Part shown: positions 29,578 through 60,990 of the stretch, one piece after another
How positions within the stretch are numbered: the first letter of the stretch is position 1
How the letters are laid out: each line of letters starts with the position of its first letter
Assembly (NCBI GenBank): GCA_037447435.1
Contig: JBBIGR010000009.1
Location: 80,875 to 144,874, forward strand
Reading direction: 5' to 3'
Source of the DNA: Fibrobacteria bacterium
Lineage (GTDB): Bacteria > Fibrobacterota > Chitinivibrionia > Chitinivibrionales > FEN-1185
DNA: 64,000 nt
The notes under the pieces: generated by a model
The model's input: only the letters and a program-made list of their open reading frames with translations
What the model was told of the DNA's origin: nothing
Database searches by the model: none
Position numbers and translations under genes: made by a program

Positions 29578-30354
29578 TCAACCGTATCTGCCTTCGATGT
29601 ATTCTTCGGTTTTGTGGTTTCGCGGATGCAAAAACAATTCTTCCGTACGCAGATGTTCGATCATTTCGCCAAGAAGCATGAAAATGCATTCGTCGCTGGC
29701 GCGCCGCGCCTGCGCCATGTTATGCGTTACGATGACGATCGTATAGGTTCCCCGCAAACTGAACATGAGTTCCTCGATTGCCCGGGTGCCCTCGACATCG
29801 AGAGACGAACAAGGTTCGTCCATGAGAATGATTTTCGGCTTTAAGGGCAACAAACGTGCGATGCATAATTTTTGCTGCTGTTCCAATTGCAACGTCGGCG
29901 CTTTAGCATTGAGTTTGTCTTTGAGGTCTTTCCACAGGCCCACTTCCGAAAGCGCCTTCTCTACTGCTTCGTCAAGAAACGCTTTCTTGAGCTTGCTTCG
30001 CGGCGTATGCACCCGTAGACCGAACACGACGTTTTCGTATACCGAAATGGGAAGGGGATTGGGCCGTTGGAAAACCATGCCGACGGATTTGCGCAATTCC
30101 AATAACGAAACATCGGGATCGTAAATGTTTTTGCCGAGTATTTCGATGACCCCTGCGGTTTTGACATAACTGAATCGTTCGTTGATGCGGTTGAAGCAAC
30201 GCAAAAGCGTTGTTTTGCCGCACCCGCTCGGCCCGATGAGCGAGGTGATGAGCCCGTGCTTGATTTGCGTATTCACCTTTTTAAGGGCGCAAAAGTTGCC
30301 GTACCATAAATTAAGGTCTTTTGTTTCGATGCCGATCGATGCGTTGTCGCTCAT
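29578..30354 (-). CDS. pstB: Phosphate ABC transporter ATPase with degenerate signature motif
   Basis: GPSGCGKT, GMVFQRPNP, ILMDEP, IVTHNM, TEEYIEGRYG; signature reads LQLEQ instead of LSGGQ. Confidence 0.9.
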   Translation of the reverse strand: MSDNASIGIETKDLNLWYGNFCALKKVNTQIKHGLITSLIGPSGCGKTTLLRCFNRINERFSYVKTAGVIEILGKNIYDPDVSLLELRKSVGMVFQRPNPLPISVYENVVFGLRVHTPRSKLKKAFLDEAVEKALSEVGLWKDLKDKLNAKAPTLQLEQQQKLCIARLLPLKPKIILMDEPCSSLDVEGTRAIEELMFSLRGTYTIVIVTHNMAQARRASDECIFMLLGEMIEHLRTEELFLHPRNHKTEEYIEGRYG

Positions 30355-30364
30355 AGTGGTTTTA

Positions 30365-31129
30365 TCATCCGAAAATGCCGTTGATATATTCGTACGTTTC
30401 CCGTTTGCCCGGCTTGTCCGAGAATATTTTTTCCGTGGTGTCGAGTTCGACGATCTTGCCGTTCCATAAAAACATGGTGCGATTGGCGAGCCGCCGCGCC
30501 TGATGCGTGAGATTCGTCACCAGGATGATGGTGATTTCCTTTTGCAATTCCTTGAGCACGTCTTCGATGCGCATCGTGGTCACCGGATCGATGGCGATGG
30601 AAAATTCATCGAGACATAAAATGTCGGGACTGTGGGACAGCGCCCGTGCAATTGTCAAACGTTGCTGCTGGCCGCCCGAAAGCGCGGTCCCCAGGCTTTT
30701 AAGGCGGTCTTTCACTTCGTCCCATAGTGCCGCCTGGCGAAGGCATTTTTCCACGATGGGGTCAAGGTCCGATTTCTTCGTGAGTCCGGAACAACGGGGC
30801 GCAAAAGCCACATTGTCGTATATGGAAAGCGGCAATCCTACCGGAAGCGGGGCCACCATGCCGATTTTTCGTCGCAACCCGTATACGTCGGCTTTTTTAA
30901 TGTTCTCGTTGTCAACGTGAATGGAACCCGACACCGTGGCGTTTGCGGTAAACTGTATGGTCCGGTTAAGGCAGCGCAGTAACGATGTTTTACCGGATTG
31001 CGCAGGGCCGATGATCGCGAAAATTTCGTTGCGGCAAATATCGAACGAAATGCCGTGCAGTACTTCTTTGACGCCGTAAGCGAGCCGAAGGTCTTCTATG
31101 ACGATGGTTTTATCCGATGATGCGTTCAT
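30365..31129 (-). CDS. pstB: Phosphate ABC transporter ATPase paralogue with degenerate Q- and H-loops
   Basis: GPAQSGKT, GMVAPLP (no Q), [19 protein letters not shown] (no H), TYEYINGIFG; start at MNASSDK. Confidence 0.88.
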   Translation of the reverse strand: MNASSDKTIVIEDLRLAYGVKEVLHGISFDICRNEIFAIIGPAQSGKTSLLRCLNRTIQFTANATVSGSIHVDNENIKKADVYGLRRKIGMVAPLPVGLPLSIYDNVAFAPRCSGLTKKSDLDPIVEKCLRQAALWDEVKDRLKSLGTALSGGQQQRLTIARALSHSPDILCLDEFSIAIDPVTTMRIEDVLKELQKEITIILVTNLTHQARRLANRTMFLWNGKIVELDTTEKIFSDKPGKRETYEYINGIFG

Positions 31130-31136
31130 GCCGCCC

Positions 31137-32048
31137 TTACCATTTCTTCCTGTTGCGCATCCAGACCCGGACTGCGATGGCGCTTGCATTGACCACAAGC
31201 ACCGAGCCAAGCAAGACTATTGCGGTCGCGCAGGATACCGATTCCTTAACATCCGGTACTTGCGTCGCGAGCGTATACAAATGCATGGACAGGGCCATAC
31301 ATTGGTCGGTAAGCTTATAAGGGAACAAACTGCCGCTTTCGACCGCTTTGTAAAAAACCGCGCCGGTAAACATGATGGGAGCGGTTTCGCCTGCCGCCCT
31401 GCTCACCTGCAGTATGACGCCGGTCAATATGCCGCTTATGGAATTGGGCAAAACGACCGCGCGGATGGTTTGCCACCGCGTGGCGCCCACATTCCAGCAC
31501 GCTTCGCGAAACGTCATAGGAACCGAGGCAAGCGCTTCCCTGGTGCTTGCGATAATCACCGGCAGGGTCATGATGGCAAGCGTCAGGGATGCGGAAATGA
31601 TGGAATAGCCGAATTTCGCCGCATAGACAAATGCGCCAAGCCCGAAAAGCGCGTGCACGATGCTGGGTACGCCGGCAAGGTTGATGACCGCTAAATTGAT
31701 GATGCGGTTGAACCAATTATCTTTTGCATATTCGTTAAGATATATAGCCGCAAGCACGCCGATGGGCGTTGATACGGCGAGCGAAAGAAAAACGAGGTAA
31801 ATCGTGCCGACGAATGCGGGCCAAATGCCGCCGTCGCGCATGCCGCGCCTGGGTACTTCTATGAGAAATTGCCAATTGAGGGTCGGCGCCGCTTTAACGG
31901 CAAGATATCCGATGATGCCGAGAAGCGGAATTATCATGAGCATTGCCATGATAAAAAAGCCCCACTTTGCGAGCCATTCCAATTTAATTCTGCCCGCGCC
32001 GTAAGCTGATTGCGTAAAGAGGGCTTTTTGCGGTGAATGAGTATCCAT
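31137..32048 (-). CDS. pstA: Phosphate ABC transporter permease
   Basis: GGIWPAFVGT, AIYLNEY, LAGVPSIV, SRAAGETAP. Confidence 0.93.
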   Translation of the reverse strand: MDTHSPQKALFTQSAYGAGRIKLEWLAKWGFFIMAMLMIIPLLGIIGYLAVKAAPTLNWQFLIEVPRRGMRDGGIWPAFVGTIYLVFLSLAVSTPIGVLAAIYLNEYAKDNWFNRIINLAVINLAGVPSIVHALFGLGAFVYAAKFGYSIISASLTLAIMTLPVIIASTREALASVPMTFREACWNVGATRWQTIRAVVLPNSISGILTGVILQVSRAAGETAPIMFTGAVFYKAVESGSLFPYKLTDQCMALSMHLYTLATQVPDVKESVSCATAIVLLGSVLVVNASAIAVRVWMRNRKKW

Positions 32049-32054: not shown

Positions 32055-32960
32055 TTATTTTCTCTTAAAGCCGCGGATGACGAAATCTGCGGTCAAATTT
32101 ACCGTAAATGTAATTACAAAGAGCAAGACCCCGGTAAGAAACAGGACGCGGTAATGATCGGAGGAGGCGGAAGCCTCGCCCAGTTCCGCGGCTATATTTG
32201 CGGTAAGTGTTCGTACCGAATCAAGAACGCCGTGCGGGATTTGAACCGCATGGCCGGTGGCCATAAGCACCGCCATGGTTTCGCCCACAGCCCTGCCGAC
32301 GCCGAGCAAAACCGCAGCGAGCAGACCGTTTTTTGCAGCAGGTAATAAAACCCGGCGAATCATTTGCCATTTTGTTGTCCCCATGGCAATAGACGCTTCG
32401 CGGAACGAATCGGGGACCGCTTTGAGCGCGTCTTCTCCTATGGAGACAATGATCGGGACACTCATGAGGGCCAAAATTATGCCGCCGTTCAGCAAGTTCA
32501 CGCCCACCGGCGCGCCTGTCGTAAAAATGATGATCTTGCTCATCACCGTAAGCCCGATGAATCCCCAAACGACGCTTGGTATCGCGGCAAGAAGCTCTAT
32601 AATAATTTTAAGGGTCTCTTTTTGTTTGTTTCCGCAGAATTCCGAAACGTAAATCGCGGCACCAAGACCGAACGGAACCGCAATAATCATGGCCAGCGCG
32701 GTAACGCCCAGACTGCCGACGGTCAGTGCAAACGTGCCGTAGCGGACGTTGACGCTGGAAGTAGGATACCATAAAGTACTGAACAAAAATTGTAAGACAT
32801 TGAACTTGCCGTTAAACAGTACCGGTAGAGCTTCCCTGAATACGAAAAAGAATATTGCTATGACAAAAATGATGGCCGAAATGCCGCTCAACCGAATGAG
32901 TAGTTCAAGGGCCTTTTCAAAGAATATTGCCCAGTCGGGGCGCTTTGCTCGTTTGTTCAT
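32055..32960 (-). CDS. pstC: Phosphate ABC transporter permease
   Basis: ELLAAIPSVVWG, GRAVGETMAVLM, RTLTANIAAELGE. Confidence 0.93.
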   Translation of the reverse strand: MNKRAKRPDWAIFFEKALELLIRLSGISAIIFVIAIFFFVFREALPVLFNGKFNVLQFLFSTLWYPTSSVNVRYGTFALTVGSLGVTALAMIIAVPFGLGAAIYVSEFCGNKQKETLKIIIELLAAIPSVVWGFIGLTVMSKIIIFTTGAPVGVNLLNGGIILALMSVPIIVSIGEDALKAVPDSFREASIAMGTTKWQMIRRVLLPAAKNGLLAAVLLGVGRAVGETMAVLMATGHAVQIPHGVLDSVRTLTANIAAELGEASASSDHYRVLFLTGVLLFVITFTVNLTADFVIRGFKRK

Positions 32961-32998: not shown

Positions 32999-33925
32999 TT
33001 ATTTTGTTGCCGATGCCGCAGGAATGGGAACGAATCCGTTTTCCTGGAGTATCTTTTGACCGGTCGAAGAAAGGACCCAGTTGATGAATTCTTTTTCGGC
33101 GCCGTCCGGATCGCCGAGCGTGTAAATTTGTAAAGAACGTGCCAACGGATATTTTTTCGATAAAGCGTTTTCAACATTCGGCGTGTAATATTCTGCGCCT
33201 TGTTTTGCGCTCAGGTTCAACATTTTAATGCCTGCGGTGGCATAGCCCATGCCGCTGTAACCGATGGCTGTTTTGGTATTTGAAACCAATTCGACGACTT
33301 CCTTGGACCCGTTCATGTCGCGCGATCCGAGCCTGAAATCTTTTTTATCAAGAACATGTTCGCGGAAAAATTCGTAGGTTCCGGAACTCGATTGCCTGCT
33401 GACGAGAACGATTTTATCGTCGGTTACTCCGGGGATCTTGACGCCGAGCTGCGACCAGTTTGAAATCGATCCGCCTTCGACGAATATTTGGGCGAGCTGA
33501 TCTATGGATATTTTGTCGAGCGGATTGTCTTTGTTGATGAAAACCGCCAAAGCATCGTACCCTACGATAAATTCCTTCGGTTCTTTTCCGGTGTTTTTCT
33601 TTGTCTGGTCGATTTCTTCCTGCTTGATATTTCTGCTGGCGGTCGCAATATCGACGGTGCCTTTTTCAAGCGCGGCAAGACCCACGCCCGATCCGCCGCC
33701 CGATACTTCTATATCGACCGCAGGATTCAGTTTCTTATATTCTTCGGCCCATGCCTGTGCGATATTGACCATGGTGTCGGAGCCTTTGATCTGAATCGTG
33801 GTTTTCTTTACTTTCGGCTGTTGGTCTTGCTTTTTTCCGCATCCCAAAACGAGCATTGCGGCACAAAACAATGCGGTGGAAATCGCGCGGACGGAACGGT
33901 TTGAAACAACGGCTTGCATACTCAT
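32999..33925 (-). CDS. pstS: Phosphate-binding lipoprotein
   Basis: LVLGC lipobox, IKGSDTM, GGGSGVG, ASR, SRQSSSGT, YPLAR. Confidence 0.92.
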   Translation of the reverse strand: MSMQAVVSNRSVRAISTALFCAAMLVLGCGKKQDQQPKVKKTTIQIKGSDTMVNIAQAWAEEYKKLNPAVDIEVSGGGSGVGLAALEKGTVDIATASRNIKQEEIDQTKKNTGKEPKEFIVGYDALAVFINKDNPLDKISIDQLAQIFVEGGSISNWSQLGVKIPGVTDDKIVLVSRQSSSGTYEFFREHVLDKKDFRLGSRDMNGSKEVVELVSNTKTAIGYSGMGYATAGIKMLNLSAKQGAEYYTPNVENALSKKYPLARSLQIYTLGDPDGAEKEFINWVLSSTGQKILQENGFVPIPAASATK

Positions 33926-35037
33926 TTGTCATTCTCCTTTATTTCGGTCACGATAATTGCTTTGACAAGGTCTTCCACTTGGATTTTGATAAACTGGAAC
34001 GTTTCTTCAAAGGCTTTTCTTGAAAGTTCGATCGAGTTTTTGTAAGACGAGGGGTCGTCGATGGGCCAATCGAGGAAAATTGTTTTTCTCGGACGCTGCG
34101 GAAACATTTTATGCGCGTTCGGCGTGAGTGCGACAATAACTTGGTAATGATCCAGATTCGGAATCTGATGCAATGCCCGCGGTGCGACACGCGAAATATC
34201 GAACCCTTTTTCTTTCATAAAGTCGATGGTAAAACGATCGATGGGTTGCGGATCGAGTCCTGCGCTGTTGAATATGAAGCGCGGCTGATTAAGTGCCGAG
34301 GCAATTGATTCGGCCATTTGACTGCGGCAACTGTTATGGTCGTCGATGAATAGTACTCTGAAGGCTTCGGCTCCGGGATGTTTCACATATTCGCCGGTGC
34401 ACATGTACAATATTTCCATGCAAATGTTGCGCGCCTGGTCGCTTACCCGTTCGAACCGTTTGATAATGCTCATGAGCGGGTCGAAAATATCGTAGGTGAT
34501 GTTGTGCTTTGTCAATTGGTCGACGAGGTTGCTGTTGAGGATACGGCGCAAATTGTCCACCGCGTCCTCTATTTCAATGTTCTTTTTCGCTTTTTCAGGG
34601 TCCTGATCGATGAAGGCCTGAATAGAATCGTGAAACATGGTAATCGAAAGGTTCGCTATTTCCACAATGCCGTTTTTGATTGCATCGGACGGTTTTTCTT
34701 TGAGTTTTAAAATATGACGGGCAATACTCTCGGCATAATCGCCGACCCTTTCGATTTCCAAATTGATTTTTATCGTGCTGTAGGCAAATCGCATGGGCAT
34801 CGCAACGGGTTGCTGTCGAACGATGAATTCAAGACAAAGTCTGTCTATCTCTTTTTCTTTTTCATCTATATATTGATCGCGAAGTATAATAGCATAGGCA
34901 AGTTGGCGGTTAAACTCGATACAGGACTTAACGCTATCTTGTAATGCCTTTTCCGCATGGTTTGCCATTTGTATGACGTTTTGGCGAATGCGGTCTATAT
35001 CACGTTGAAACGATTCCTCTAAATGCGTTTGCATCAT
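33922..35037 (-). CDS. phoU: PhoU fused to a C-terminal LMW-PTP/ArsC-like domain lacking the catalytic cysteines
   Basis: QPVA…EIERVGDYA…ERVSDQARNICM PhoU repeats, then [16 protein letters not shown]…SAG…DIS…WPIDDP. Confidence 0.9.
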   Translation of the reverse strand: MMQTHLEESFQRDIDRIRQNVIQMANHAEKALQDSVKSCIEFNRQLAYAIILRDQYIDEKEKEIDRLCLEFIVRQQPVAMPMRFAYSTIKINLEIERVGDYAESIARHILKLKEKPSDAIKNGIVEIANLSITMFHDSIQAFIDQDPEKAKKNIEIEDAVDNLRRILNSNLVDQLTKHNITYDIFDPLMSIIKRFERVSDQARNICMEILYMCTGEYVKHPGAEAFRVLFIDDHNSCRSQMAESIASALNQPRFIFNSAGLDPQPIDRFTIDFMKEKGFDISRVAPRALHQIPNLDHYQVIVALTPNAHKMFPQRPRKTIFLDWPIDDPSSYKNSIELSRKAFEETFQFIKIQVEDLVKAIIVTEIKENDK

Positions 35038-35258: not shown

Positions 35259-35367
35259 CTAACGGTTTCCTCACAAAACCGGCAAAAAAATAAGTAAAAA
35301 AACCTGGGTATATGGGTAAAATATTAATCCTAACCAATTTCTAACACTCGTCTCAACTGTATCTAAT
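35259..35367 (+). promoter_or_regulatory. Pho-box-like 11-bp direct repeats
   Basis: CTAAC 35259/CTCAC 35270; CTAAC 35330, CTAAC 35341, CTCAA 35352, CTAAT 35363. Confidence 0.65.
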
Positions 35368-35470
35368 TCAATAGCGCTAATTTTATAGCGTCGGAATTTT
35401 GGGTTCTTTTAAAAAAGCATACAATGAATTTCGTATAAAAATACTATAAACTCGGAAAAAGGAGGAGCAA

Positions 35471-35836
35471 ATGATCGACTTCAGTTATGATGCCGAGACC
35501 CTCAGCCCGATTTTTTCAAGAATGAATCCAAGCCTTGGTCACATCAGGGGAAAAGTAACCGATATAGACGGTTATGGCCTTAAAAACGCAAGAATTTGGG
35601 TAAGGGAAACAGGTTTGAGCGCATTGAGTGATGATAAAGGAAACTTTGTCATAATCAATAATAAGCCGGGCATTTACAATCTTATTGCCGAATGTCAAGG
35701 ATACGGCCGGTCGGAGACTGTAGACGTTGTCGTTGAGCCGGGCGACAATCCCGGGCTCAATTTTATTATGTTTCAAACATATAACCGTTTGCGACAAGGG
35801 CGTCGCCGCGGGTCATTAATTTGCCCTTTAGCGTAA
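35471..35836 (+). CDS. Carboxypeptidase-regulatory-like (transthyretin-fold) domain protein
   Basis: GHIRGKVTD…LKNARIWV…SDDKGNF…PGIYNL…GY pattern; AGGAGG RBS. Confidence 0.7.
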   Translation: MIDFSYDAETLSPIFSRMNPSLGHIRGKVTDIDGYGLKNARIWVRETGLSALSDDKGNFVIINNKPGIYNLIAECQGYGRSETVDVVVEPGDNPGLNFIMFQTYNRLRQGRRRGSLICPLA

Positions 35837-36169: not shown

Positions 36170-36358
36170 CCAGCAACCGTCATATTTATAACAGTCAATC
36201 ATGAATGGGATTGGATAAAGTGACGGCGGCAATGTCCTGTAGCGGACATACATGGGGATAAGGAAGGGGGGACGATCGCAAAACTTTTTATCCGCCATTG
36301 TTTAGTTTGAAAAAATTTAAAGAGATTAGAAAAATATTTATCCATGGGAGGATCGCGA

Positions 36359-37771
36359 ATGAAAAAAGTAATGACAACCTGTATATCGCTTATGGCAATT
36401 GCCTTTGCAGCGTTGGCTCAAAATAACGATAGCGCGACAACAAAATCGCAAAATGGTAATCAAACGGCTGTTGAGGAGAAAGTATCCGATCTTAAAGGAG
36501 CGGTCGACGGGCTGAATGAAAGTTATTTGGAGACAAAGGCAACGGTCGGTGCTTTGGCCAAAATCAAAGTATCGGGATATATACAGGCTCAGTATATGGT
36601 TGCGGATGTAAAAAACAGTCTTTCTGCGATGTACAGCGTGCCGGCAGGAAAAGTCGCGGCAACAACCTATGGTCGCCAGGAGTTTTTGATAAAGCGCGGA
36701 AGGTTGAAAACAACCTATGATGCCGGATTGGCACAATACGTGCTTGAATTAGATGCAACACAGGACGGCGTCGGAATCAAAGACGCCTATGCGGCGTTTT
36801 CGGAACCATGGCTTAATTCTTTTAAATTGACTATGGGTGCGATGGACCGCCCGTTCGGGTATGAAGTGAGCTATTCATCCAGCCAGCTCGAATCGCCGGA
36901 ACGTTCCCGCATAATCGGCAATCTTTTTCCCAAAGAAAAAGATCTCGGCGCAATGCTTGAATTCGGCCAGGATGAAGGACCGTTGTCGTGGCTTACCGTC
37001 AAGGGTGGCGTTTATAACGGTATGACCAATATCACCGACGAAGATGATGATTATAAAGATGTGATCGGCAGAGCCGGCGTAAAATTTCCCATGCCGAAAG
37101 CGGGTTTGGATATTGAAGGCGGCGTGTCTGCTTATTATGGAAAAGTCACGGATTTCGATACGGTAAGTAAGGGAAGAGAATATGAAATGAACGGGAATGC
37201 GTGGACGGTTAAGACCGGACAGAACGGCCAATTGTTCGATCGTAAATATTACGGCGCCGATATCCAATTGTATTATGCCACACCGGTCATCGGCGGAACC
37301 TGCCTCAAGGGTGAATATATTCAGGGGTATCACCCGACAAAAGGCGGCGCTTCCGACTTTTACGGAAGCGGAACATCGGTTACGGTGAACGATCCGGTGT
37401 ACGAAAGACAAATGGCGGGTTTTTACACCTATCTCATTCAAAATATCGATCCTGCGAATCTGCAGCTTGTTGTCAAATATGATTTTTGGGATCCCAATAC
37501 CCAGGTTGCCGCGAGTGATTTTGTAGACAATACGACAACGAAAACTACATTGACAAACCAGGACCTTGCCTATTCGACGTGGGGATTCGGCGCATTGTAC
37601 TATTTGCCCTGGGCTCCAAACGTGCGCTTGCAGTTGTATTATGAAATACCCAAAATCGAGAAGCTGGACGCGACAAAAGTTGCCGCGACAAGTTCTCTGT
37701 TCAAGTATACGGACTATACAAGTGCAACAAATTTGAACATGTTGACGTTTAGGGTTCAATTTAAGTTCTAA
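36359..37771 (+). CDS. Outer-membrane porin, probably phosphate-selective (OprO/P-like)
   Basis: Signal peptide, coiled segment, KVSGYIQAQY, KRGRLK, IKDAY, RPFGYE, PERS, C-terminal QFKF; first gene of the pst operon. Confidence 0.78.
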   Translation: MKKVMTTCISLMAIAFAALAQNNDSATTKSQNGNQTAVEEKVSDLKGAVDGLNESYLETKATVGALAKIKVSGYIQAQYMVADVKNSLSAMYSVPAGKVAATTYGRQEFLIKRGRLKTTYDAGLAQYVLELDATQDGVGIKDAYAAFSEPWLNSFKLTMGAMDRPFGYEVSYSSSQLESPERSRIIGNLFPKEKDLGAMLEFGQDEGPLSWLTVKGGVYNGMTNITDEDDDYKDVIGRAGVKFPMPKAGLDIEGGVSAYYGKVTDFDTVSKGREYEMNGNAWTVKTGQNGQLFDRKYYGADIQLYYATPVIGGTCLKGEYIQGYHPTKGGASDFYGSGTSVTVNDPVYERQMAGFYTYLIQNIDPANLQLVVKYDFWDPNTQVAASDFVDNTTTKTTLTNQDLAYSTWGFGALYYLPWAPNVRLQLYYEIPKIEKLDATKVAATSSLFKYTDYTSATNLNMLTFRVQFKF

Positions 37772-37815
37772 TTTGCTTTGAAACGATGCTTCCATTATTA
37801 ACAAGGAGAAATAGA

Positions 37816-38658
37816 ATGAAAAAAATGTCAAAAAAAATTATAGCAGTCGGGCTTTGCATTGCATGTGCATTCGGGCTCATGGCTGCAACAAATAAAAAAG
37901 TGATTACGGTCAAGGGTTCCGATACGATGGTCATACTTGCCCAACGCTGGGCGGAACAATACATGGCAAAACATCCCGATATCACCGTGCAGGTCACGGG
38001 CGGCGGTTCGGGGGTCGGGCTTTCGGCACTCATTAACGGCACTACCGATATTGCCAATTCGTCGCGTCCTATGAAGAAAAGCGAAATGGACAAACTCAAG
38101 GTCCGTTTCAATTCGCTGGGATACGAAACCCAAGGGGCGAAAGACGGTATAACCCTGTATATGAACGAATCGAATCCGATATCTGAAATGACCATCAGCC
38201 AGATCAAGGCGATTTACCTTGGCGAAATAACGAATTGGAAAGACGTGGGCGGTCCTGATGCCAAAATCATACTGTACGGACGCGAAAACAGTTCGGGCAC
38301 GTATGTCTATTTTAGAGATAATGTCTTAGGCGGCAAAGATTACGCGGCGAGTATGCAGTCTCTTCCGGGAACTGCAGCGGTAGTCAATGCGGTTGCCAAA
38401 GACAATTTAGGAATCGGTTACGGCGGTGCTGCGTATGCAAAGGGGATCAAGGTCCTTAAGGTTAAAAAGGATGCGAATTCTCCCGCCTACGAGCCAACGC
38501 CGGAAACCATTAAAATGAACCAGTACCCGATCACCCGGTATCTTTACATGTATACCCGTGCAAAGCCGATCGGCGACATTAAGGATTTTATCGACTGGAC
38601 GCTTTCCAGCGAAGGACAATCCGTCGTGACAAAAGTCGGGTATTTCCCGGTTAATTAA
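37816..38658 (+). CDS. pstS: Phosphate-binding protein
   Basis: VKGSDTM, GGGSGVG, SSR, GRENSSGT, IGYGG, YPITR; AAGGAG RBS. Confidence 0.94.
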   Translation: MKKMSKKIIAVGLCIACAFGLMAATNKKVITVKGSDTMVILAQRWAEQYMAKHPDITVQVTGGGSGVGLSALINGTTDIANSSRPMKKSEMDKLKVRFNSLGYETQGAKDGITLYMNESNPISEMTISQIKAIYLGEITNWKDVGGPDAKIILYGRENSSGTYVYFRDNVLGGKDYAASMQSLPGTAAVVNAVAKDNLGIGYGGAAYAKGIKVLKVKKDANSPAYEPTPETIKMNQYPITRYLYMYTRAKPIGDIKDFIDWTLSSEGQSVVTKVGYFPVN

Positions 38659-38673
38659 AGTGCTCTCAAAATC

Positions 38674-38765
38674 CCCCCTAACCCCTTAGGGGGCTGTGCC
38701 GGGTCTTCACCGCTCGCGCGCCGAACACCGTTCATTAACGGTGTTCGTGAAGCGAGCGGTGAAGA
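38674..38765. repeat. Intergenic palindromes between pstS and pstC
   Basis: CCCCCTAA-cccc-TTAGGGGG and a long hairpin TCTTCACCGCTCGC…CGAACACCGTT-catt-AACGGTGTTCG…GCGAGCGGTGAAGA. Confidence 0.8.
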
Positions 38766-38795
38766 AAAAAATAAACATAATTTTAGGATGCGCTC

Positions 38796-39752
38796 GTGCC
38801 CCCAAATAATGAAAAAACAATAAAAATGAACAAAGGCAAATCAAAATTTCGCCTTCATGAATTCATTATCGAAAAGTCAATGGCTTCGATCGCTTTTATT
38901 TCTTTCGCATTTATAATTCTTATTCTCATATTCGTGTTCCGCGAAGCAATACCGCTTATCATCGGCACTGCAATGGATGATGTGGGTAAGGTGACTCTTA
39001 AAAACGTATTGGCGCTTGCGTGGCAACCTGTTTCGAATTCACCGCAATACGGACTTTTACCGCTTATCGTCGGTAGTCTCAAAGTCACCTTTGTTGCAAT
39101 GGGTTTTGCGTTTCCCGTGGCGATATTGGCCGCATTGTTCACCTCAACGTTTGCCCCAAAATGGGCAAAGGAAATTTTGAAACCCGCCATAGAAATTTTG
39201 GCTGGTTTTCCGTCCGTGGTTATCGGCTTTTTCGCCTTAACGGTATTGGCTTCGTTTTTTCAGCATGTGCTAGGTCTGCGGTACCGGTTGAATGCGTTTA
39301 CCGGCGGTATTGCGCTTTCGATGGCCGTCATCCCGATCATATATACGGTTGCCGAAGACGCAATCAATGTATTGCCCAAAACAATGCGCGAAGCAAGCTA
39401 TGCTCTCGGCGCGACAAAATGGGAAACATCGCTATATATTTTACTGCCTGCCGCGACGCCCGGCGTTTTTGCCGCATTACTATTAGGATTGGGACGGGCT
39501 TTCGGCGAAACAATGATCGTTTTAATGGCAACGGGAAATGCGGCGCTGTTATCGCCCCATATATTCGAACCGGTGCGGACAATGTCGGCAACCATCGGTG
39601 CGGAAATGGCGGAAGTGGTATTCGGCGACGCGCATTACAATACGCTGTTTTTTATCGGCGTTTGCCTGTTCATGTTTTCGTTTTCCCTTAATGCAATTGC
39701 GGAACTTGTGGTTCGTCAACGAATGATGAAAAGGTTTAGAGGCAACTCGTGA
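38796..39752 (+). CDS. pstC: Phosphate ABC transporter permease
   Basis: YGLLPLIVGS, EILAGFPSVVIG, GRAFGETMIVLM, TIGAEMAE. Confidence 0.93.
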   Translation: MPPNNEKTIKMNKGKSKFRLHEFIIEKSMASIAFISFAFIILILIFVFREAIPLIIGTAMDDVGKVTLKNVLALAWQPVSNSPQYGLLPLIVGSLKVTFVAMGFAFPVAILAALFTSTFAPKWAKEILKPAIEILAGFPSVVIGFFALTVLASFFQHVLGLRYRLNAFTGGIALSMAVIPIIYTVAEDAINVLPKTMREASYALGATKWETSLYILLPAATPGVFAALLLGLGRAFGETMIVLMATGNAALLSPHIFEPVRTMSATIGAEMAEVVFGDAHYNTLFFIGVCLFMFSFSLNAIAELVVRQRMMKRFRGNS

Positions 39753-40654
39753 AACTATCAAAAAAAGTTCTCGGCATCGGCATAATATCTTTGACCGGAT
39801 TTTGCGCCTTCCTTATTATCGGCGTGGTCATTTTTATCATGGCAAACATCATCGTGGGCGGGCATTCGGTAATGTCCTGGAAGTTTTTAACCACTAATCC
39901 GACCGAAGGGATGACGCAGGGCGGAATTTTTCCCGCCATTGTGGGTACATTTTTCCTGGTTTGCATTATGTCTTTGGTGGGCGTTCCGGTCGGGACCGTT
40001 ACCGCTGTTTACTTGGCAGAATATGTAAAACAGGAATCCTGGATTGCAAAATCGATACGGTTTGCGGTCAATACGCTCGCCGGCATTCCCGCAATCGTCT
40101 TCGGACTGTTCGGTTTGGGCTTTTTCATTCAATTCGTCGGCACCAACATGGATAAGGCTTTTAGCGGTCAGGGAAATCTGGTTTGGGGAAAGCCGAGCAT
40201 TTTATGGGCAAGCCTGACAATGGCACTTTTGACATTACCCGTTGTCATTGTTTCGGTGGAAGAGGCGATAAAGGCGGTACCCCGGGAATTGCGCGAAGCG
40301 AGTTTGGCCCTGGGTGCGACAAAATGGGAAACCATTTTACGTATCGTGCTTCCCAATTCGATAACCGGGATTCTGACCGGCGCGATTTTGGCCGTGAGCC
40401 GCGGTGCCGGTGAGGTTGCACCGATACTGTTTACCGGCGCGGCGTATTTTTTGCCCGATATTCCGACAAAACTATCGGACCAGTTCATGGAGCTCGGCTA
40501 TCACGTGTATATAATGGCGACACAATCGACCAATGTGGATTCGACCGCAGGGATACAGTACGCGACGACGCTGGTGTTGTTGCTGTTGACATTTATCTTG
40601 AATTTTTCAGCTATTTATTTGCGCTTTTGGATGAGAAAACGTTCGTTTCAGTAG
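39749..40654 (+). CDS. pstA: Phosphate ABC transporter permease
   Basis: GGIFPAIVGT, VYLAEY, LAGIPAIVFGLFG, SRGAGEVAP. Confidence 0.93.
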   Translation: MKLSKKVLGIGIISLTGFCAFLIIGVVIFIMANIIVGGHSVMSWKFLTTNPTEGMTQGGIFPAIVGTFFLVCIMSLVGVPVGTVTAVYLAEYVKQESWIAKSIRFAVNTLAGIPAIVFGLFGLGFFIQFVGTNMDKAFSGQGNLVWGKPSILWASLTMALLTLPVVIVSVEEAIKAVPRELREASLALGATKWETILRIVLPNSITGILTGAILAVSRGAGEVAPILFTGAAYFLPDIPTKLSDQFMELGYHVYIMATQSTNVDSTAGIQYATTLVLLLLTFILNFSAIYLRFWMRKRSFQ

Positions 40655-40720
40655 GAAGAACATTTGTCCCCGCAGCGTTGGCTGAGGGATACCTTTTTGC
40701 ATACAATAAGTTGGGATTAT

Positions 40721-41494
40721 ATGGAAAACATTGACACAAGATCGGTCGTGATAGAAACGAAAAATGTGAATCTTCAGTACGGCGCCAAGAAAGCGCTCTG
40801 CGACATTTCCATGGACATCCGTGAAAAATGCGTGACGGCCTTTATCGGTCCTTCTGGCTGCGGAAAATCGACATTTTTGCGTTTGTTCAACAGAATGAAC
40901 GATCTCATCGAAGGCGTATCGATACAAGGTACCATAAAAATACACGGCGTCGATATTTATGAAACATCCATCGATGTGGTTGATTTAAGAAGAAAAGTAG
41001 GCATGATTTTCCAGAAATCCAATCCTTTTCCAAAGTCGATTTACGAAAACGTCGCCTATGGTCCTAAAATTCAGGGTATCCGGAAGAAAAGCGAATTGGA
41101 CGGCATCGTGGAACAATGTTTACGGCAGGCGGCATTATGGGATGAGGTGAAAGACGCGCTTCACGGCAATGCGTTGGGACTTTCCGGCGGACAGCAACAA
41201 CGGTTATGCATAGCCCGCGCATTGGCGGTCAAACCCGAAATTTTGCTTATGGACGAACCCGCATCGGCATTGGATCCTTTGTCAACCGCTAAAATAGAGG
41301 AACTGATTTACGAATTAAAGGACGATTACACCATAGTCATTGTCACGCACAATATGCAGCAGGCGTCCAGAGTCAGCGATTACACCGCATTCTTTTATAT
41401 GGGCGAACTCATTGAATACGACAATACGACGGCGATGTTTACTTCGCCTAAATTGAAACGGACCGAGGATTATATTACCGGAAGATTCGGATAG
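40721..41494 (+). CDS. pstB: Phosphate ABC transporter ATPase (canonical)
   Basis: [51 protein letters not shown]. Confidence 0.96.
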
Positions 41495-41662
41495 CGTCCG
41501 TGATGAATAATACGATATACTGTATTTGGAACCGTAATGCTTTCATATCGATGCGTTCACTTCTCCTCCTCATGGTTATTTGAGAGAGAAAAATTAGCTT
41601 TCAGGTCCCTGTTTGGGGCATAGGGAAGCGGCAAAAAACAAAAATTATGGAATCGAGACCGT

Positions 41663-42355
41663 ATGGCGCATGAATCGATACTAATCGTCGAAGATGAAGA
41701 CGACATCAGGGAATTAATAGCCTATAACCTGACAAAAGAAGGCTACAGGCCCCATGGTGCGTTGTCCGGGGAAGATGCGATCAAAAAAGCGAGGGCCGAG
41801 CGCTACGATCTGATTATTTTGGACCTCATGCTGCCGGGAATCGACGGACTCGATGTCTGTCGGACCCTTAAAAAGGACGCGAAGACACAAACCATTCCGG
41901 TCATCATGCTCACGGCTAAAGGCGAAGAATCGGATATGGTAAGCGGTTTGGAACTCGGTGCCGACGATTATATTGTCAAACCGTTTTCACCGCGGGTACT
42001 TATTGCACGCATAAAGACGGTTTTGCGGAGGAAATCGGCCGAACCTATAGACCCGAACGCATCGATAAGCATCCACGATCTTGCCATTCATCCGGGCAGA
42101 CGTGAAGTTCTGGTCGGTAAGCGCAGCGTTGAATTGACAAATATGGAATTTCGGGTCTTGCACCTTCTTGCCAGCAGGCCGGGCTGGGTTTTTTCCCGGT
42201 ATCAAATCGTGGAAGGCGTCCGCGGCGATAATTATCCCGTTACCGACAGGTCGGTAGACGTACTCATTGTAGGGTTACGGAAAAAACTGGGCGATGCGGG
42301 CGAGTATATCGAAACCGTGCGGGGTGCGGGGTATCGTTTTAAGGAAGCAGAATAA
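41663..42355 (+). CDS. phoB: PhoB/PhoP OmpR-family response regulator
   Basis: VEDE, LDLMLP, MLTAK, GADDY, KPFSP, RSVDV, IETVRGAGY; position within the pst cluster. Confidence 0.9.
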   Translation: MAHESILIVEDEDDIRELIAYNLTKEGYRPHGALSGEDAIKKARAERYDLIILDLMLPGIDGLDVCRTLKKDAKTQTIPVIMLTAKGEESDMVSGLELGADDYIVKPFSPRVLIARIKTVLRRKSAEPIDPNASISIHDLAIHPGRREVLVGKRSVELTNMEFRVLHLLASRPGWVFSRYQIVEGVRGDNYPVTDRSVDVLIVGLRKKLGDAGEYIETVRGAGYRFKEAE

Positions 42356-42358
42356 ACA

Positions 42359-44167
42359 ATGTGGCCTAAAAAATTATTCTGGCAGCTCTATTGTTCCTAT
42401 CTATTAATGGTAGGCGTTCCGGTGTTCGTGATCACCTGGTATTCGACGGATTCGTTTACAAAGTTTTACCGTACGCAGATGGTCGAAGACCTCAAGGCGC
42501 GGGCGAATCTTATCGCGGCACAGGTTGAAAATTATCTTACGTATTCTTCGCCGGGTCCGGTTGATTCTTTGTGTAAAGCCCTGGGAAAAAAGATTCCCAC
42601 CCGCTTTACCGTAATCGGGATCGACGGCAAGGTCCTCGGCGATTCGCATAAAAGTCCCGATTCAATGGAAAACCACGGAAGCAGGCCCGAATTCATCGCC
42701 GCGATGAAAGGAAGCGACGCCGTGTCCGAACGGTATAGCTTTACTTTGTCCGAAAGCATGGTGTATGTCGCATTGCCTGCATTCGTCAACGGAAAAATCT
42801 CGGCGGTTGTCCGCACTTCATTCCCGGTATATCTTATCAAAAAAGCCTTGTACGCATTGTATGAAAAAATCGCGATTGTCGTTTTTCTTACCGCGTTTTT
42901 TGCCGCGATCATGAGTTATTGGGTTTCCCGGAAAATCAGCCGTCCTATTTTACAAATGAAATTACGAGCCCAACATTTTGCCGCAGGGGATTTCGGCAAT
43001 AAACTTTCCATCGACAGTTATGAGGAAGCGAATCAACTTGCCGCAGGCCTCAATGAAATGGCGAGGCAGCTCAATGAGCGTTTGGCTACCATTACAGAAC
43101 AGCGGAACGAGCGCGATGCGGTTTTGTCGAGCATGATCGAAGGAGTCATCGCGATAGATGCCGACGAAAAAATATTGACAATTAATAAGGCTGCCGAAAC
43201 GCTTTTCAGCATCAATCAGGATCGCTGCAAAGGAAAATGGATCGGGGAGGCATTGCGGAACACCGAAGTGCATGAATTCCTCTTGACCGCTCTGCGGTCG
43301 AATAGTCCGGTCGAAAAGGAACTGGCATTGCCCATTCCCGGGCAAGTAAAAGATACCGAACCGTTATTATATTTGCAGCTTCACGGTAATGCGCTGCTCG
43401 ACACGGTCGGACGGGCAATCGGCGCGCTCATGGTTGTCAACGATATTACGAAAATCAAAAAACTGGAAAATATCCGCAAGGATTTTGTCGCGAACGTGTC
43501 TCACGAATTGCGGACGCCCTTAACCTCGATAAAAGGGTATGTCGAAACATTGCTTTGCGGTGCTCTGAACAACCCGGCGGAAGCAATCAGGTTCCTTACG
43601 GTAATAGCCAATCAGGTAGACCGGATAAATTCCATTGTCGAAGACCTCTTGTCGCTATCTCGGATAGAGCGCGATGCCGAGGTGTCGTCCGTCGATCTTG
43701 TTGCCACTCCGGTATGCGAGGTTTTGACGGCCGCACTCGAAACATGCAGGCATAAAGCCGTGCTCAAGTCGATTTCCCTCGACGTGGAATGCGATGGAGC
43801 CATACTGGCAAAAATGGAGAAGTCGCTTCTTGAGCAGGCTATTGTCAACCTCGTGGACAATGCGATCAATTACAGCGATGAAAAAAAGACCGTCAAGATT
43901 TCCGCTCAGGAAAATGCATTGGACAAGACTGTCGTCATTTCGATACGCGATGAAGGAATCGGGATTTCGCAAGAACATCTTGAACGGATATTCGAACGGT
44001 TTTACAGGGTAGATAAGGCCCGGAGCCGTAAGCTCGGCGGAACAGGGCTCGGCCTATCTATTGTAAAACATATAGTCCTGGCGCACGGCGGCAAGGTCGG
44101 CGTCTCGAGCGTTTTAGGGCAGGGAAGCACGTTTACCATTACCCTTCCTTTGTTGAAGCAAGTTTGA
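42359..44167 (+). CDS. phoR: PhoR sensor histidine kinase
   Basis: Two TMs, ENHGSRPE, HAMP, PAS, DFVANVSHELRTPL, NLVDNA, FERFYRVDKARSR, GGTGLGL. Confidence 0.92.
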   Translation: MWPKKLFWQLYCSYLLMVGVPVFVITWYSTDSFTKFYRTQMVEDLKARANLIAAQVENYLTYSSPGPVDSLCKALGKKIPTRFTVIGIDGKVLGDSHKSPDSMENHGSRPEFIAAMKGSDAVSERYSFTLSESMVYVALPAFVNGKISAVVRTSFPVYLIKKALYALYEKIAIVVFLTAFFAAIMSYWVSRKISRPILQMKLRAQHFAAGDFGNKLSIDSYEEANQLAAGLNEMARQLNERLATITEQRNERDAVLSSMIEGVIAIDADEKILTINKAAETLFSINQDRCKGKWIGEALRNTEVHEFLLTALRSNSPVEKELALPIPGQVKDTEPLLYLQLHGNALLDTVGRAIGALMVVNDITKIKKLENIRKDFVANVSHELRTPLTSIKGYVETLLCGALNNPAEAIRFLTVIANQVDRINSIVEDLLSLSRIERDAEVSSVDLVATPVCEVLTAALETCRHKAVLKSISLDVECDGAILAKMEKSLLEQAIVNLVDNAINYSDEKKTVKISAQENALDKTVVISIRDEGIGISQEHLERIFERFYRVDKARSRKLGGTGLGLSIVKHIVLAHGGKVGVSSVLGQGSTFTITLPLLKQV

Positions 44168-44188
44168 AAAAAAACAGAAAGGTTTACA

Positions 44189-44860
44189 ATGGCAATTCAT
44201 TTGCAAAGAGAAATAGATAAACTCAAGAAAAAAATCCTGACGCTTTCCACCATCGTGGAGGAAAATGTCGAGCGGGCGGTTCGCAGCGTGGAAAAGCGGG
44301 ACGCCGCTTTGGCAAAACGGGTGATCGAAGAAGACAAAGCGGTCGACACCATGGAAATTGAAGTCGAGGAAGAGTGCCTGAAGGTTTTTGCGCTGCATCA
44401 ACCGGTCGCCACCGATCTGCGCTTCATCGTCGCCGTATTAAAAATCAATAACGACCTCGAGCGGATCGGGGATTTGACCGTGAATATCGCCGAACGGTCG
44501 CTGGTATTGGCCGAAAAAGGGGATTTTGTTTTTTCCTCCAATTTTCCCACCATGATGGAAAAAGCGAGGCTCATGCTCAAGCAATGCCTCGACGCATTGG
44601 TAAACCTCGATTCCAAACAGGCGCTTGCCGTTTGCGCGGCCGACGACGAGGTGGACGCGCTGTACAGGGAAATGTTCGAAAAGGTGAAAACCGGGATCAT
44701 TCAGGACAGCGGTCAAATAGATTGTTATTTGCAAATGCTATCCATTTCGCGCCATTTGGAACGCATCGCCGATCATGCCACGAACATTGCCGAAGACGTT
44801 ATTTATATGATAGAAGGTTCAATCATTCGCCATAGCGGCGGCAAGTTTAAAAATTCCTGA
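44189..44860 (+). CDS. phoU: Phosphate signalling protein PhoU (canonical)
   Basis: QPVATDLR, DLERIGD, DDEVD, LERIADHATNIAE. Confidence 0.95.
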   Translation: MAIHLQREIDKLKKKILTLSTIVEENVERAVRSVEKRDAALAKRVIEEDKAVDTMEIEVEEECLKVFALHQPVATDLRFIVAVLKINNDLERIGDLTVNIAERSLVLAEKGDFVFSSNFPTMMEKARLMLKQCLDALVNLDSKQALAVCAADDEVDALYREMFEKVKTGIIQDSGQIDCYLQMLSISRHLERIADHATNIAEDVIYMIEGSIIRHSGGKFKNS

Positions 44861-51373: not shown

Positions 51374-51742
51374 TTGCAGGATTTCATTCGTATTACAAAG
51401 GCTTTGGCCGATTCGAATCGGGTGAGGGCGCTGTTGGCATTGGGCGATGGGGAATTATGCGCATGTCAAATCATAGAACTGTTAAACCTGGCCCCGTCCA
51501 CGGTTTCCAAACATATGTCCGTTCTCAAACAGGCAGGTTTGGTTCTCGGCCGCAAAACCGAACGTTGGATGTATTATCGGTTGCCCACGGAAAACGAAAA
51601 CTCAAAAATGGTCGGCGAAGTCATAAAATTGGTATTCTCGTTATTGAATTCGGATAATGCCGTTTCTTTAGATCGGGTGAATTTGAAAAAAATAACCAAA
51701 CGGAATCCCTCGAATCTCGGTAAAACTCAGCGAGGTAAATAA
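51374..51742 (+). CDS. arsR: ArsR/SmtB family repressor
   Basis: KALADSNR, ELCACQ metal-binding motif, STVSKHM…AGLV…WMYY; AAGGAG RBS with TTG start. Confidence 0.9.
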   Translation: MQDFIRITKALADSNRVRALLALGDGELCACQIIELLNLAPSTVSKHMSVLKQAGLVLGRKTERWMYYRLPTENENSKMVGEVIKLVFSLLNSDNAVSLDRVNLKKITKRNPSNLGKTQRGK

Positions 51743-52191
51743 TGGGAGAAAAATTAAAAGTTCTTTTTCTCTGTACGGGCAACTCCTGCAGAAGCCAAAT
51801 GGCGGAAGGATGGGCAAAATTCTTGAAAGGCGATAGTATTGAACCCTTTTCCGCCGGCATCGAAACCCATGGGTTAAATCCCGTAGCCATTCGGGTGATG
51901 GCAGAAGCCGGGGTCGATATTTCGAAGCAGCATTCAAAACTTATAGATGAAATCAAACAAATCGAATTTGACTGGGTTATTACCGTGTGCGACAATGCAA
52001 ATGATCATTGTCCCGTATTTCCGGGCAAGGCAAAACGCCTTCATGTGGGTTTCGATGATCCGCCGACCTTGTCGAAATACTCTAAAACTTGGGAAGAAAA
52101 ATTAACGCATTACAGGCGGATCAGGGACGAAATACGTCTATTTGTCGAGGGAATGCCTGGAAATTTATTGGAAGATTTACCTCATGGCTGA
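51742..52191 (+). CDS. arsC: Thioredoxin-coupled arsenate reductase
   Basis: [33 protein letters not shown]: all three redox cysteines present. Confidence 0.95.
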
Positions 52192-53227
52192 GCAAGAGAA
52201 AAAATTATCGTTCCTCGACAGTAATCTTACACTTTGGATATTTATTACAATGGGGCTCGGTGTTGCCATTGGTTGGTTATTTCCTGCAACCTCGGAATTG
52301 CTGACGCGCTTGAGTGTTGGGACTACGTCGATTCCCATAGCAATCGGCCTTATCATCATGATGTATCCGCCGCTTGCAAAAGTAAATTATCGAAAAATAG
52401 GCGGTGTTTTTTCGGACAATAAGGCGTTGGTGTTATCTCTAGTCCAGAACTGGATCGTGGGACCGATTCTCATGTTTGCCCTTGCGCTGGTGTTTTTGCG
52501 CGGGCAGCCGCATCTGATGGCCGGGGTGATCATCATCGGGCTAGCCCGATGTATTGCTATGGTTATTGTTTGGAATAGTCTGGCTAAAGGCGACAGTGAA
52601 TATGCCGCTGCGCTTGTTGCATTCAATTCCGTATTCCAGGTGCTCTTTTTTGCGGTGTACGCCTATGTGTTTGTGACCGTGTTTCCACCCTTTTTCGGCA
52701 TTGCCGGACAGGTGGTTCATGTATCGATGAAAGAAGTGGCAGCAAGCGTGGGGATTTATTTGGGCATACCGTTTGGTGCGGGCTTCTTGACGCGCATGAT
52801 TCTTGAACCTATCAAAGGAGAAGAATGGTATACCAAGCGATTCGTGCCTAAAATTGGGCCTGTCGCGCTCATCGCATTGCTTTTCACTATTCTCGTCATG
52901 TTTATCTATAAAGGCAGGGCGATTATTTCGCTGCCGCTCGATGTCGTTTTGGTGGCGATTCCGCTGTGCATGTATTTCCTTATCATGTTTTTCGGTTCCA
53001 TGTTCGTCACGAGTCGTTTGGGAATAAACTATCGGGAAGCCGTCAGTCTTTCCTTTACTGCTGCAAGTAATAATTTCGAACTTGCCATCGCAGTGGCCGT
53101 TGGCGTGTTTGGCATTGCGTCGAAAGAGGCTTTTGCGGCGGTTATCGGTCCGCTTATAGAGGTTCCGGTCATGATTGCGTTAGTCAATGTGGCGCTGAAA
53201 ATGAAAAAACGTTTTGCTGACGAATAA
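52184..53227 (+). CDS. acr3: ACR3 family arsenite efflux transporter
   Basis: [52 protein letters not shown]. Confidence 0.96.
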
Positions 53228-53232
53228 TACCA

Positions 53233-54291
53233 ATGGTCGAGAAAGGCAATTCCGTGGCGAATTCCTGTTGTTGCAGTAAACCCGAAATCCGCAAAGCCGT
53301 TCCTTTTTGGCAATTAAAGGATTATTACGGTGCGGTAATGTGCCGAGTCAGCGACGGTTTCCGGAATAAATATCGGGTGAAGCCCGGGCTCTATACATTC
53401 GGATCCCCATCTGCCGAATCGGATGTTTTCGTTACGGCAAACTATAAGTTATCGTTTGACCTGTTGCGAAAGGATCTTGCGGGAATCGACGCATGGATTT
53501 TGGTCCTTGATACGGACGGTATCAATGTCTGGTGTGCGGCAGGAAAAGGCACATTCGGAACAAAGGAACTCGTTCGCAAAATCGAATCGGAAAAACTGAA
53601 TGAAAAAGTTTCGCATAAAAGGATACTAGTTCCGCAGCTCGGCGCTTCGGGAATAAGCGCGCATGACGTGAAAAAGAGCACGGGATTTTCCGTCGTATAC
53701 GGTCCGGTATTGTCTAAAGATATTAAAGACTTCATCGCAAACAACTATGCAAGCACATCCCGCATGCGTACGGTGACCTTTACAATTGCCGAGCGTGCGG
53801 TATTAATTCCCATAGAGGTCGTTGCCATGGTAAAAAAAGCATGGCTCATCGTACTTCTTGTCGCAATGGCATTGGGAATACAAAAGCAAGGAATCATGTT
53901 CGGTCCAATGATTCACCGCACAATGCCGCTGTTTGTCGGATTTATTTGTGCAATTTTCGCCGGTTCGGTTTTGCATCCGATCATTCTTCCGCTCAGTCCG
54001 GTTCGCTCATTTGCTTTACAAGGATTGTTTCTCGGACTATTGTGCGACGGAGTATTGCATGGTTCCGGCCTGTTTTCAGGTATGTCAATATATGGAACGG
54101 GTTCGGCATATCTCCTGGTTGCGGCATTGAGCTCCTATTTGGCTTTCAATTTCACCGGCTGCACGCCGATTGCAAATAAATCCGGCGTGAAAAAAGAACT
54201 TCGCATTGCGTTTCCGATGTATGTTGCATCCGCCGTTGCCGTAACAATCCTGATTGTTCTTTACAAACTTTCATGCGAGGCAGTCATATGA
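53233..54291 (+). CDS. hgcA: Mercury methylation corrinoid protein HgcA
   Basis: YRVKPGLY, VTANYKLSFD, diagnostic cap helix NVWCAAGK, PQLGA, C-terminal TM helices, NFTGCTP…SGVKKE. Confidence 0.95.
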   Translation: MVEKGNSVANSCCCSKPEIRKAVPFWQLKDYYGAVMCRVSDGFRNKYRVKPGLYTFGSPSAESDVFVTANYKLSFDLLRKDLAGIDAWILVLDTDGINVWCAAGKGTFGTKELVRKIESEKLNEKVSHKRILVPQLGASGISAHDVKKSTGFSVVYGPVLSKDIKDFIANNYASTSRMRTVTFTIAERAVLIPIEVVAMVKKAWLIVLLVAMALGIQKQGIMFGPMIHRTMPLFVGFICAIFAGSVLHPIILPLSPVRSFALQGLFLGLLCDGVLHGSGLFSGMSIYGTGSAYLLVAALSSYLAFNFTGCTPIANKSGVKKELRIAFPMYVASAVAVTILIVLYKLSCEAVI

Positions 54292-60911: not shown

Positions 60912-60990
60912 TACATTGATTCCTTTCGCAATGAATACCGGATATGACGTTTATAATATACCACAAAATACCCCAACGTGCTATTAATAA

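Follow-up and report, generated by a model that had tools for sequence, protein, structure and literature searches.

PhoU is described as a bridge between the ATPase PstB and PhoR (PMC9239213), and in Escherichia coli the conformation of PstB is reported to signal to PhoR via PhoU (PMC5775613). Streptococcus pneumoniae has a second Pst system (Pst2) with its own PhoU (PhoU2), which is reported to limit transport (PMC4913102), and Enterococcus faecalis carries adjacent pstB paralogues (pstB1 and pstB2) whose products are both reported to keep all four ATPase motifs (PMC12096839). The PhoUs of Firmicutes two-pstB systems are not described as fused. Here we analyze a 64,000-nucleotide stretch of a Fibrobacteria bacterium (assembly GCA_037447435.1, contig JBBIGR010000009.1, positions 80,875 to 144,874; hereafter the window), in which a PhoU is fused to a domain with the fold of arsenate reductase (ArsC) and the protein tyrosine phosphatase of low molecular weight (LMW-PTP) that lacks the catalytic cysteines. 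The fusion gene heads a six-gene pst cassette with adjacent pstB paralogues, as in E. faecalis, although here the two ATPases have reciprocal and invariant motif defects. We propose that the fused PhoU limits its own transporter, as PhoU2 does for Pst2. A literature search, with subscription journals and supplements outside its coverage, returned no paper on the fusion, in this or an intact form, or on a degenerate PstB pair; the passages of PMC11466899 on degenerate sites concern other transporters only.

A PhoU Fused to an ArsC-Fold Domain Without Redox Cysteines

The fusion gene (33922..35037, minus strand, 371 amino acids) is a single open reading frame (ORF) without internal stops, and its end overlaps the start of pstS by 4 bases (33922-33925). 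By score, fold and setting the protein is a PhoU. It shares with known members (TIGR02135, PF01895; structures 1t72, 4q25, 2i0m, 1sum) the six-helix fold, a TIGR02135 score above the cut-off (148.4 bits vs 130.25; residues 9-217, positions 2-211 of the 212 in the model) and a place in a pst operon, and the PhoU-like residues Arg83, Glu96, Arg97, Asp100 and Arg197 are invariant in the fusion family. This domain (residues 1-217; 34387..35037, minus strand) consists of two three-helix repeats, and the predicted model of the fusion matches PhoU 1t72 with Z 29.9 and a root-mean-square deviation (rmsd) of 1.9 Å over 214 aligned residues. Unlike PhoU, the fusion adds a 140-residue ArsC-fold domain, and its gene is the first rather than the last of the operon.

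The added domain (residues 224-362; 33952..34368, minus strand) matches LMWPc (PF01451) with 52.7 bits against a cut-off of 23.2 (residues 228-357) and has the fold of the pI258/Bacillus subtilis type of ArsC (TIGR02691; 1jf8, 1jl3), the model aligning with 1jf8, the pI258 enzyme, at Z 19.4 and rmsd 1.6 Å over 130 residues. It is 30% identical over 138 residues (E 9e-15) to the ArsC encoded at 51742 in the window, whose three redox cysteines align to Asp232, Thr305 and Phe312 of the fusion. The former phosphate-binding loop (residues 232-239; 34321..34344, minus strand) includes Asp232 at the nucleophile position, Cys237 and Arg238, and the same alignment shows Asn235, Ser236, Arg238, Ser239 and Asp327-Asp328-Pro329 to be present. 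The domain is not devoid of cysteine, since Cys237 remains, presumably at the loop's non-catalytic cysteine position. Thus, an earlier note made from the DNA letters, which had described a PhoU fused to an ArsC/LMW-PTP domain with all three redox cysteines gone and the NSxRS loop and DDP kept, is borne out for this protein by family scores, fold matches and alignment.

The note had also asked whether the architecture is confined to this assembly, which it is not. Among named relatives, proteins of Chitinivibrionales come closest (~75% identity), and both Pfam domains are present in all of the 120 best of 2874 matches to the fusion. Together with the relatives encoded in many GTDB genomes, these matches rule out an assembly chimera or a fusion unique to this genome: the fusion is real and lacks the catalytic cysteines. 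The arsC and phoU genes present elsewhere in the window were rejected as its source, whether by fusion or by recent copying, on identities of 30 and 27%, respectively, and on separate positions in the trees.

Conservation Across the Fusion Family

Conservation was assessed in four sets: the 120 closest proteins (the best 120 of the 2874 matches); 79 close loci from a GTDB scan, in which 380 of 409 candidate stretches encoded relatives, the best 80 were examined and one was dropped for a split frame; 97 broad representatives, that is, 102 full-length proteins among 150 representatives at 50% identity, less 5 truncated or misaligned rows; and 71 proteins of a distant clade with ~30% identity to the window fusion. 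The scan used an alignment as query; a scan with the single fusion protein gave no match.

The nucleophilic cysteine, which in ArsC stands five residues before the loop arginine, occurs in 1/79 close loci, and the resolving pair in none (0/79), with cysteine at neither position (Thr305 and Phe312 here). Position 232 is Asp in 88, Gly in 31 and Cys in 1 of the 120 closest proteins, and Asp232 is kept in 77/97 broad representatives and 68/71 distant-clade proteins; Gly replaces it in 21/79 close loci. Only three of the 97 broad representatives keep both Cys and Arg. Stand-alone controls retain this pair throughout (40/40), namely in 20/20 ArsC-matching loci (of 30 fetched from the same genomes) and 20/20 regions of a second set, although the regions were picked by score and length and both sets lean toward canonical proteins.

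Arg238 is kept in 90/120 closest proteins and 53/79 close loci, falling to 14/97 broad representatives (Leu, the commonest replacement, in 41) and 2/71 distant-clade proteins. In the close loci it is conserved no better than the average position of the domain (67%), ranking 70th among 138 columns; its state changes at least nine times on the tree of the PhoU half, and by phylum it is found in 3/14 Fibrobacterota and 27/27 Acidobacteriota loci. Asp328 is kept in 25/97 broad representatives. Cys237 occurs in 77/79 close loci, 28/97 broad representatives and 30/71 distant-clade proteins. Apart from Asp232, the best-kept positions among the 97 representatives belong to the fold core (Phe230, Ala242, Ser258-Ala259-Gly260, Gly278 and Trp324), and the close clade has a further well-kept stretch at 286-303. 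The ArsC network of Asn235, Glu243 and Ser258 is kept and co-varies in the domain. With Asp or Glu at 233, Asp232 makes up an acidic pair where the first strand ends. A receiver-domain reading of this pair was rejected, the end of the third strand having no conserved Asp; no receiver domain appears among the 50 listed fold matches of the model, and one could still exist beyond that list.

The sequences thus indicate that conservation in the family falls on the fold core and on an Asp in place of the nucleophile, and not on the anion ligands. The earlier note had looked to conservation of the P-loop in homologues, and this largely fails, with Arg238 at background conservation and Asp328 usually absent; the conserved anion ligands expected of an oxyanion-sensing P-loop are not found across the family. 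Because the catalytic features that we examined (Cys, loop Arg and general-acid Asp of LMW-PTP) are not conserved, the domain, judged by its sequence, is neither an ArsC nor an LMW-PTP enzyme. It differs from ArsC in having neither the nucleophilic nor the resolving cysteines, in the loss of the loop Arg from most of the family, and in its location in a pst rather than an ars operon. The TIGR02691 score (60.6 vs a cut-off of 174.3 for thioredoxin-type ArsC) agrees, but is a weak test given that the window's own ArsC reaches only 155.8.

A Six-Gene Cassette With One Predicted Working ATP Site

The cassette lies on the minus strand in the order fusion-pstS-pstC-pstA-pstB1-pstB2. PstS (32999..33925; TIGR02136, 245.2 vs a cut-off of 206.6) retains the residues common to solved phosphate-binding proteins in an alignment to 4pqj and 4omb. 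The permeases PstC (32055..32960; TIGR02138) and PstA (31137..32048; TIGR00974) both score over their cut-offs, and their Arg223 and Arg217 correspond to Arg237 of E. coli PstC and Arg220 of E. coli PstA (alignments to 9k3s_B and 9k3x_A), residues described as determining phosphate specificity in the membrane (PMC12976172). A non-phosphate substrate was rejected because PstS and both membrane arginines match phosphate systems; arsenate may also be carried.

Both ATPases fall below the TIGR00972 cut-off. In motif alignments, PstB1 (30365..31129) keeps its signature intact but carries Gln44 in Walker A and has Pro94 and Asn206 where the Q-loop Gln and the H-loop His are expected, while PstB2 (29578..30354) has canonical Walker A and B motifs, Gln96 and His211, but Leu157-Glu158 for the Gly-Gly of the signature. 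Since each ATP site is reported to combine the Walker motifs of one subunit with the signature of its partner (PMC12976172), all of the defects fall in one site. Thus, in place of the two canonical sites expected of a PstB homodimer, PstB1 and PstB2 are predicted from their motifs to form one working ATP site. Such a pump, with two genetically separable ATP sites, would be a natural test system. A predicted complex of the fusion with PstB1 and PstB2 scored 0.00 against a mark of 0.32 and gave no answer.

The arrangement is conserved. All six genes are complete in 64/80 loci, and in 61/61 of the loci with at least 4.7 kb downstream; PstB1 Asn206 is found in 63/63 close and 30/30 distant-clade loci, and PstB2 Leu157-Glu158 in 56/56 and 21/21. 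The distant clade (~30% identity) has the same genes in the order pstS-fusion-C-A-B1-B2. The best 80 loci belong to Verrucomicrobiota (30), Acidobacteriota (28), Fibrobacterota (14), Myxococcota (3) and five others, and phoB or phoR adjoins a minority of loci. Within the phylum of the window, the cassette is patchy (25/251 genomes) and absent from the 5 other genomes of the genus (0/5). A search for stand-alone copies of the cysteine-less domain yielded short matches; judged from the listing as a whole, most of them are on short contigs and seem to be fragments.

A canonical cluster starts at 36344 in the window and runs in the opposite direction, with a porin-like gene, pstSCAB, phoB, phoR and a stand-alone phoU. 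Its proteins are 27-48% identical to those of the cassette. Compared with this stand-alone PhoU (27% identity), the fusion forms its own clade and is usually an extra copy: a second PhoU scored over the cut-off in 36/42 genomes with the cassette, the other six being drafts of uncertain completeness. Therefore, the fusion is usually an additional regulator. The 475-residue porin-like protein of the canonical cluster (36344-44860) had no match in Pfam and NCBIfam scans. The same genome (G000) has a third gene set on contigs C38 (pstC/pstA) and C81 (pstB/phoU).

Upstream Repeats and Putative PhoB Control

A tied-repeat model of the regions upstream of the cassettes fitted best with a period of 11 (log-likelihood 180.7, vs 78-109 for periods 9, 10, 12, and 13), and the top repeat score was 212.9 against 65.9 for the best shuffled set. 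Because 11-bp repeats lie upstream of the cassette in many relatives, we infer that PhoB induces it when phosphate is scarce. Some observations count against this. Repeat sites were found in 50/79 upstream regions, a count raised by the relatedness of the genomes and by resemblance to the sigma-70 -35 hexamer, and the window's own region is not among the 50; nor is there a Pho-box-like site on the fusion's own strand in the window. Pho-box-like direct repeats with an 11-bp period do lie ~290 bp from the fusion start (35330..35372, plus strand), facing away; they and a second site at 36133 face plus-strand genes. The pattern has 2 matches in 64 kb against 0.38 expected, having been chosen after the site was seen. 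Constitutive, Pst2-like expression is disfavored by the upstream repeats of the relatives, and less so for this window. Just downstream of the 35330 repeats, between the two pst clusters, lies a gene for a 121-residue carboxypeptidase-regulatory-like domain protein (35471-35836) that is possibly phosphate-regulated.

Intact Fusions and Ancestry

A search with P0342, one of the three broad representatives that keep Cys and Arg, uncovered a separate, widespread PhoU-ArsC family, with named members in Deltaproteobacteria, Myxococcales and Burkholderiales. Among its best 120 proteins, 109 have the nucleophilic Cys, 116 the loop Arg and 95 the resolving pair; the 11 without the Cys represent an independent loss. 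In six genome loci (L198:3804-4931, L247:6186-7268, and L248-L251) this fusion ends an ordinary pst operon, pstB being the gene just before it, and the loop, read in three of the six, has Cys and Arg in all; a seventh locus (L252) probably encodes a plain PhoU. Five of the six loci have one PstB and L247 has two. The L247 pair (7280-8861) has milder reciprocal defects, the first PstB being without the Q-loop Gln and H-loop His and the second having Glu in its signature. We suggest, from the retained residues, that the intact fusion is a candidate arsenate reductase tethered to a phosphate pump. It would thus place an arsenate-detoxifying enzyme at the pump through which arsenate enters, a link on which our literature search found no paper.

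Trees were built from subsets of 43-47 rows. The cysteine-less fusions form one clade in the trees of each half, and the ArsC half nests among ArsCs in a tree rooted on LMW-PTPs. One protein with all three Cys and the Arg, P0235, joins this clade with a Shimodaira-Hasegawa-like approximate likelihood ratio test (SH-aLRT) support of 100 in the PhoU tree and 91 (unstarred) in the ArsC tree. Because this intact protein branches beside the cysteine-less clade, the latter likely descends from a fusion with an active ArsC, to the extent that sequences can tell. The PhoU of the P0342 family falls among stand-alone PhoUs. In or beside the cysteine-less clade, L012:9001-10101 has the nucleophilic Cys and the Arg without a resolving pair, and P0232 and P0344 keep the nucleophilic Cys.

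Possible Roles of the Cysteine-Less Domain

The fusion is likely a dedicated regulator of the second phosphate importer. The reading we favor for its added domain, to which we give about an even chance, is that of a docked, non-catalytic module, structural or partner-binding, on a PhoU specific to the cassette. Through its PhoU half the fusion would bind PstB1 and PstB2 as a pair and restrain uptake, as PhoU does in E. coli and in pneumococcal Pst2. The ArsC-fold domain would sit rigidly on the PhoU bundle and reshape the surface offered to PstB or PhoR, and Asp232 would retain the negative charge of the former thiolate and hold the shape of the loop without binding free phosphate. In the ancestor, an active ArsC on PhoU would have reduced the arsenate that the pump lets in. 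A comparable case is PRL-CNNM, where the Cys-to-Asp variant PRL C104D is reported to keep the charge, abolish catalysis, stabilize the fold and regulate an ion transporter by binding alone (PMC8728433). This is an analogy only, PRL being eukaryotic and of another fold family, and its variant engineered.

Structure prediction and coupling analysis are consistent with docking. AlphaFold2 gave a predicted local distance difference test (pLDDT) of 90.6 and a predicted template modeling score (pTM) of 0.62 with 36 alignment rows, and 95.8 and 0.87 with 150 rows, a rise that would point to a defined orientation of PhoU and ArsC domains, although pTM is a whole-chain score. Mean-field coupling (363 sequences, effective number 236) recovers the intra-domain ArsC pairs Glu243-Ser258 and Asn235-Ser258, and a weak cluster joins PhoU helix 2 (57, 58, 62) to positions 248, 256, and 299, which are probably remote from the loop.

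The limit on pTM is one of several points that weigh against this reading. The inter-domain pairs (Lys62-Gln299, Ile57-Phe256, and Asp58-Ala248) are mixed with implausible ones at an effective depth of 236. Moreover, this protein and 53/79 close relatives keep Arg238, as do all 21 members with Gly232, and therefore some members may still have a pocket. PRL binding is reported to require the loop Arg (PMC8728433), mostly lost here, so the analogy fits only those members that keep it. The unequal PstB pair needs no cysteine-less domain, since the pair in L247 adjoins an intact fusion, and the approximately unbiased test does not reject one common origin for all fusions, nor does it establish one (p-AU 0.54 and 0.25).

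The earlier note had gone further, proposing a cytoplasmic phosphate or arsenate sensor wired to PhoU and possibly gating the transporter. A role in transporter control is reasonable, because the fusion is real, widespread, cysteine-less and tied to one transporter cassette; the step to an anion sensor is not supported, given the frequency of Arg238 (53/79, 14/97, and 2/71 in the close, broad and distant sets). In such a sensor the old loop would bind the anion and signal to PhoU to close the pump, and this protein, with Asn235, Arg238, Ser239, and Asp328, would fit such a role, as would the other Arg-keepers (90/120 closest proteins and all 27 Acidobacteriota loci). Oxyanion binding is known for the parent fold (8p5n, with arsenate), and backbone amides could hold an anion even without the Arg. 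However, Arg238 ranks 70 of 138 columns, changes at least nine times on the tree and is mostly replaced by Leu in the wider family, Asp328 is kept in only 25/97 representatives, members without the Arg occupy the same cassette, and the Asp carboxylate at the nucleophile position would compete with the anion. We consider the sensor unlikely as a role for the family; it may be confined to Arg-keeping members, this protein included. A structural or partner-binding module is preferred because the arginine that would grip the anion is gone from most relatives.

A combined series is similarly doubtful: an active PhoU-ArsC would have given rise to a Cys-to-Asp pseudo-enzyme, whose Arg-keeping members would read phosphate or arsenate and gate a single-site PstB1/PstB2 motor. 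If true, it would provide a direct sensor of internal phosphate wired to PhoU. The family offers natural variants for testing, comprising PhoU with an active-type ArsC and PhoU with a cysteine-less ArsC, with or without the loop Arg.

It is rather improbable that the domain has been carried along from the active fusion of the ancestor as a passenger, retained only for packing on and stabilizing PhoU, with no part in signaling. The predicted docking, the concentration of the best-kept positions other than Asp232 in the fold core and the recurrence of Cys loss in the intact family (11/120) would all fit. Against this, full-length copies of the domain persist over an identity range of 25-60% and in several phyla, with an Asp conserved at a functional position, the short domain-only matches look like contig fragments, and the well-kept stretch 286-303 of the close clade resembles a surface under selection. 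Changed chemistry, in which Asp232 would accept a phosphoryl group or coordinate a metal, or Cys237 would respond to redox state or arsenite and so gate the pump, is improbable enough that we give it little weight. The acidic pair at 232-233 and the near-constancy of Cys237 in close loci (77/79) are what such a role would need, but Gly replaces Asp232 in 21/79 of these loci, Cys237 falls to 28/97 and 30/71 in the wider sets, and the Arg and general-acid Asp for phosphoryl transfer are usually absent. Finally, it is very improbable that the cassette is mainly a PhoR phosphate-sensing complex with little or slow transport, its crippled ATP site holding signaling conformations read by the fused PhoU: in E. 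coli PstB conformations are reported to reach PhoR via PhoU (PMC5775613), a canonical pst-phoBR-phoU cluster adjoins the cassette here and phoB or phoR lies beside a minority of loci, but one ATP site has every canonical motif and does not vary, the membrane arginines and PstS ligands are intact, the upstream repeats make the cassette appear to be a PhoB output, and its patchy occurrence (25/251 in the phylum, 0/5 in the genus) is unlike a core sensor.

Other Features of the Window and of Related Genomes

The window's ArsC belongs to an arsR-arsC-acr3 operon (51374-54593), directly followed by hgcA (NF040863, 364.8 vs a cut-off of 275) and a gene for an hgcB-like ferredoxin. The mercury-methylation genes thus sit in an arsenic operon, a link on which papers exist (bioRxiv 10.1101/2022.10.17.512643 and PMC7438021). 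Toward the end of the window (59814-63922), translations read by eye include tyrosine recombinase-like, small excisionase-like and replication-protein-like ORFs, which suggests the edge of an integrated mobile element. Another LMW-PTP fusion was seen in loci L090-L104, where frames of ~640-750 codons from Verrucomicrobiota-type genomes begin with an LMW-PTP domain that has both Cys and Arg.

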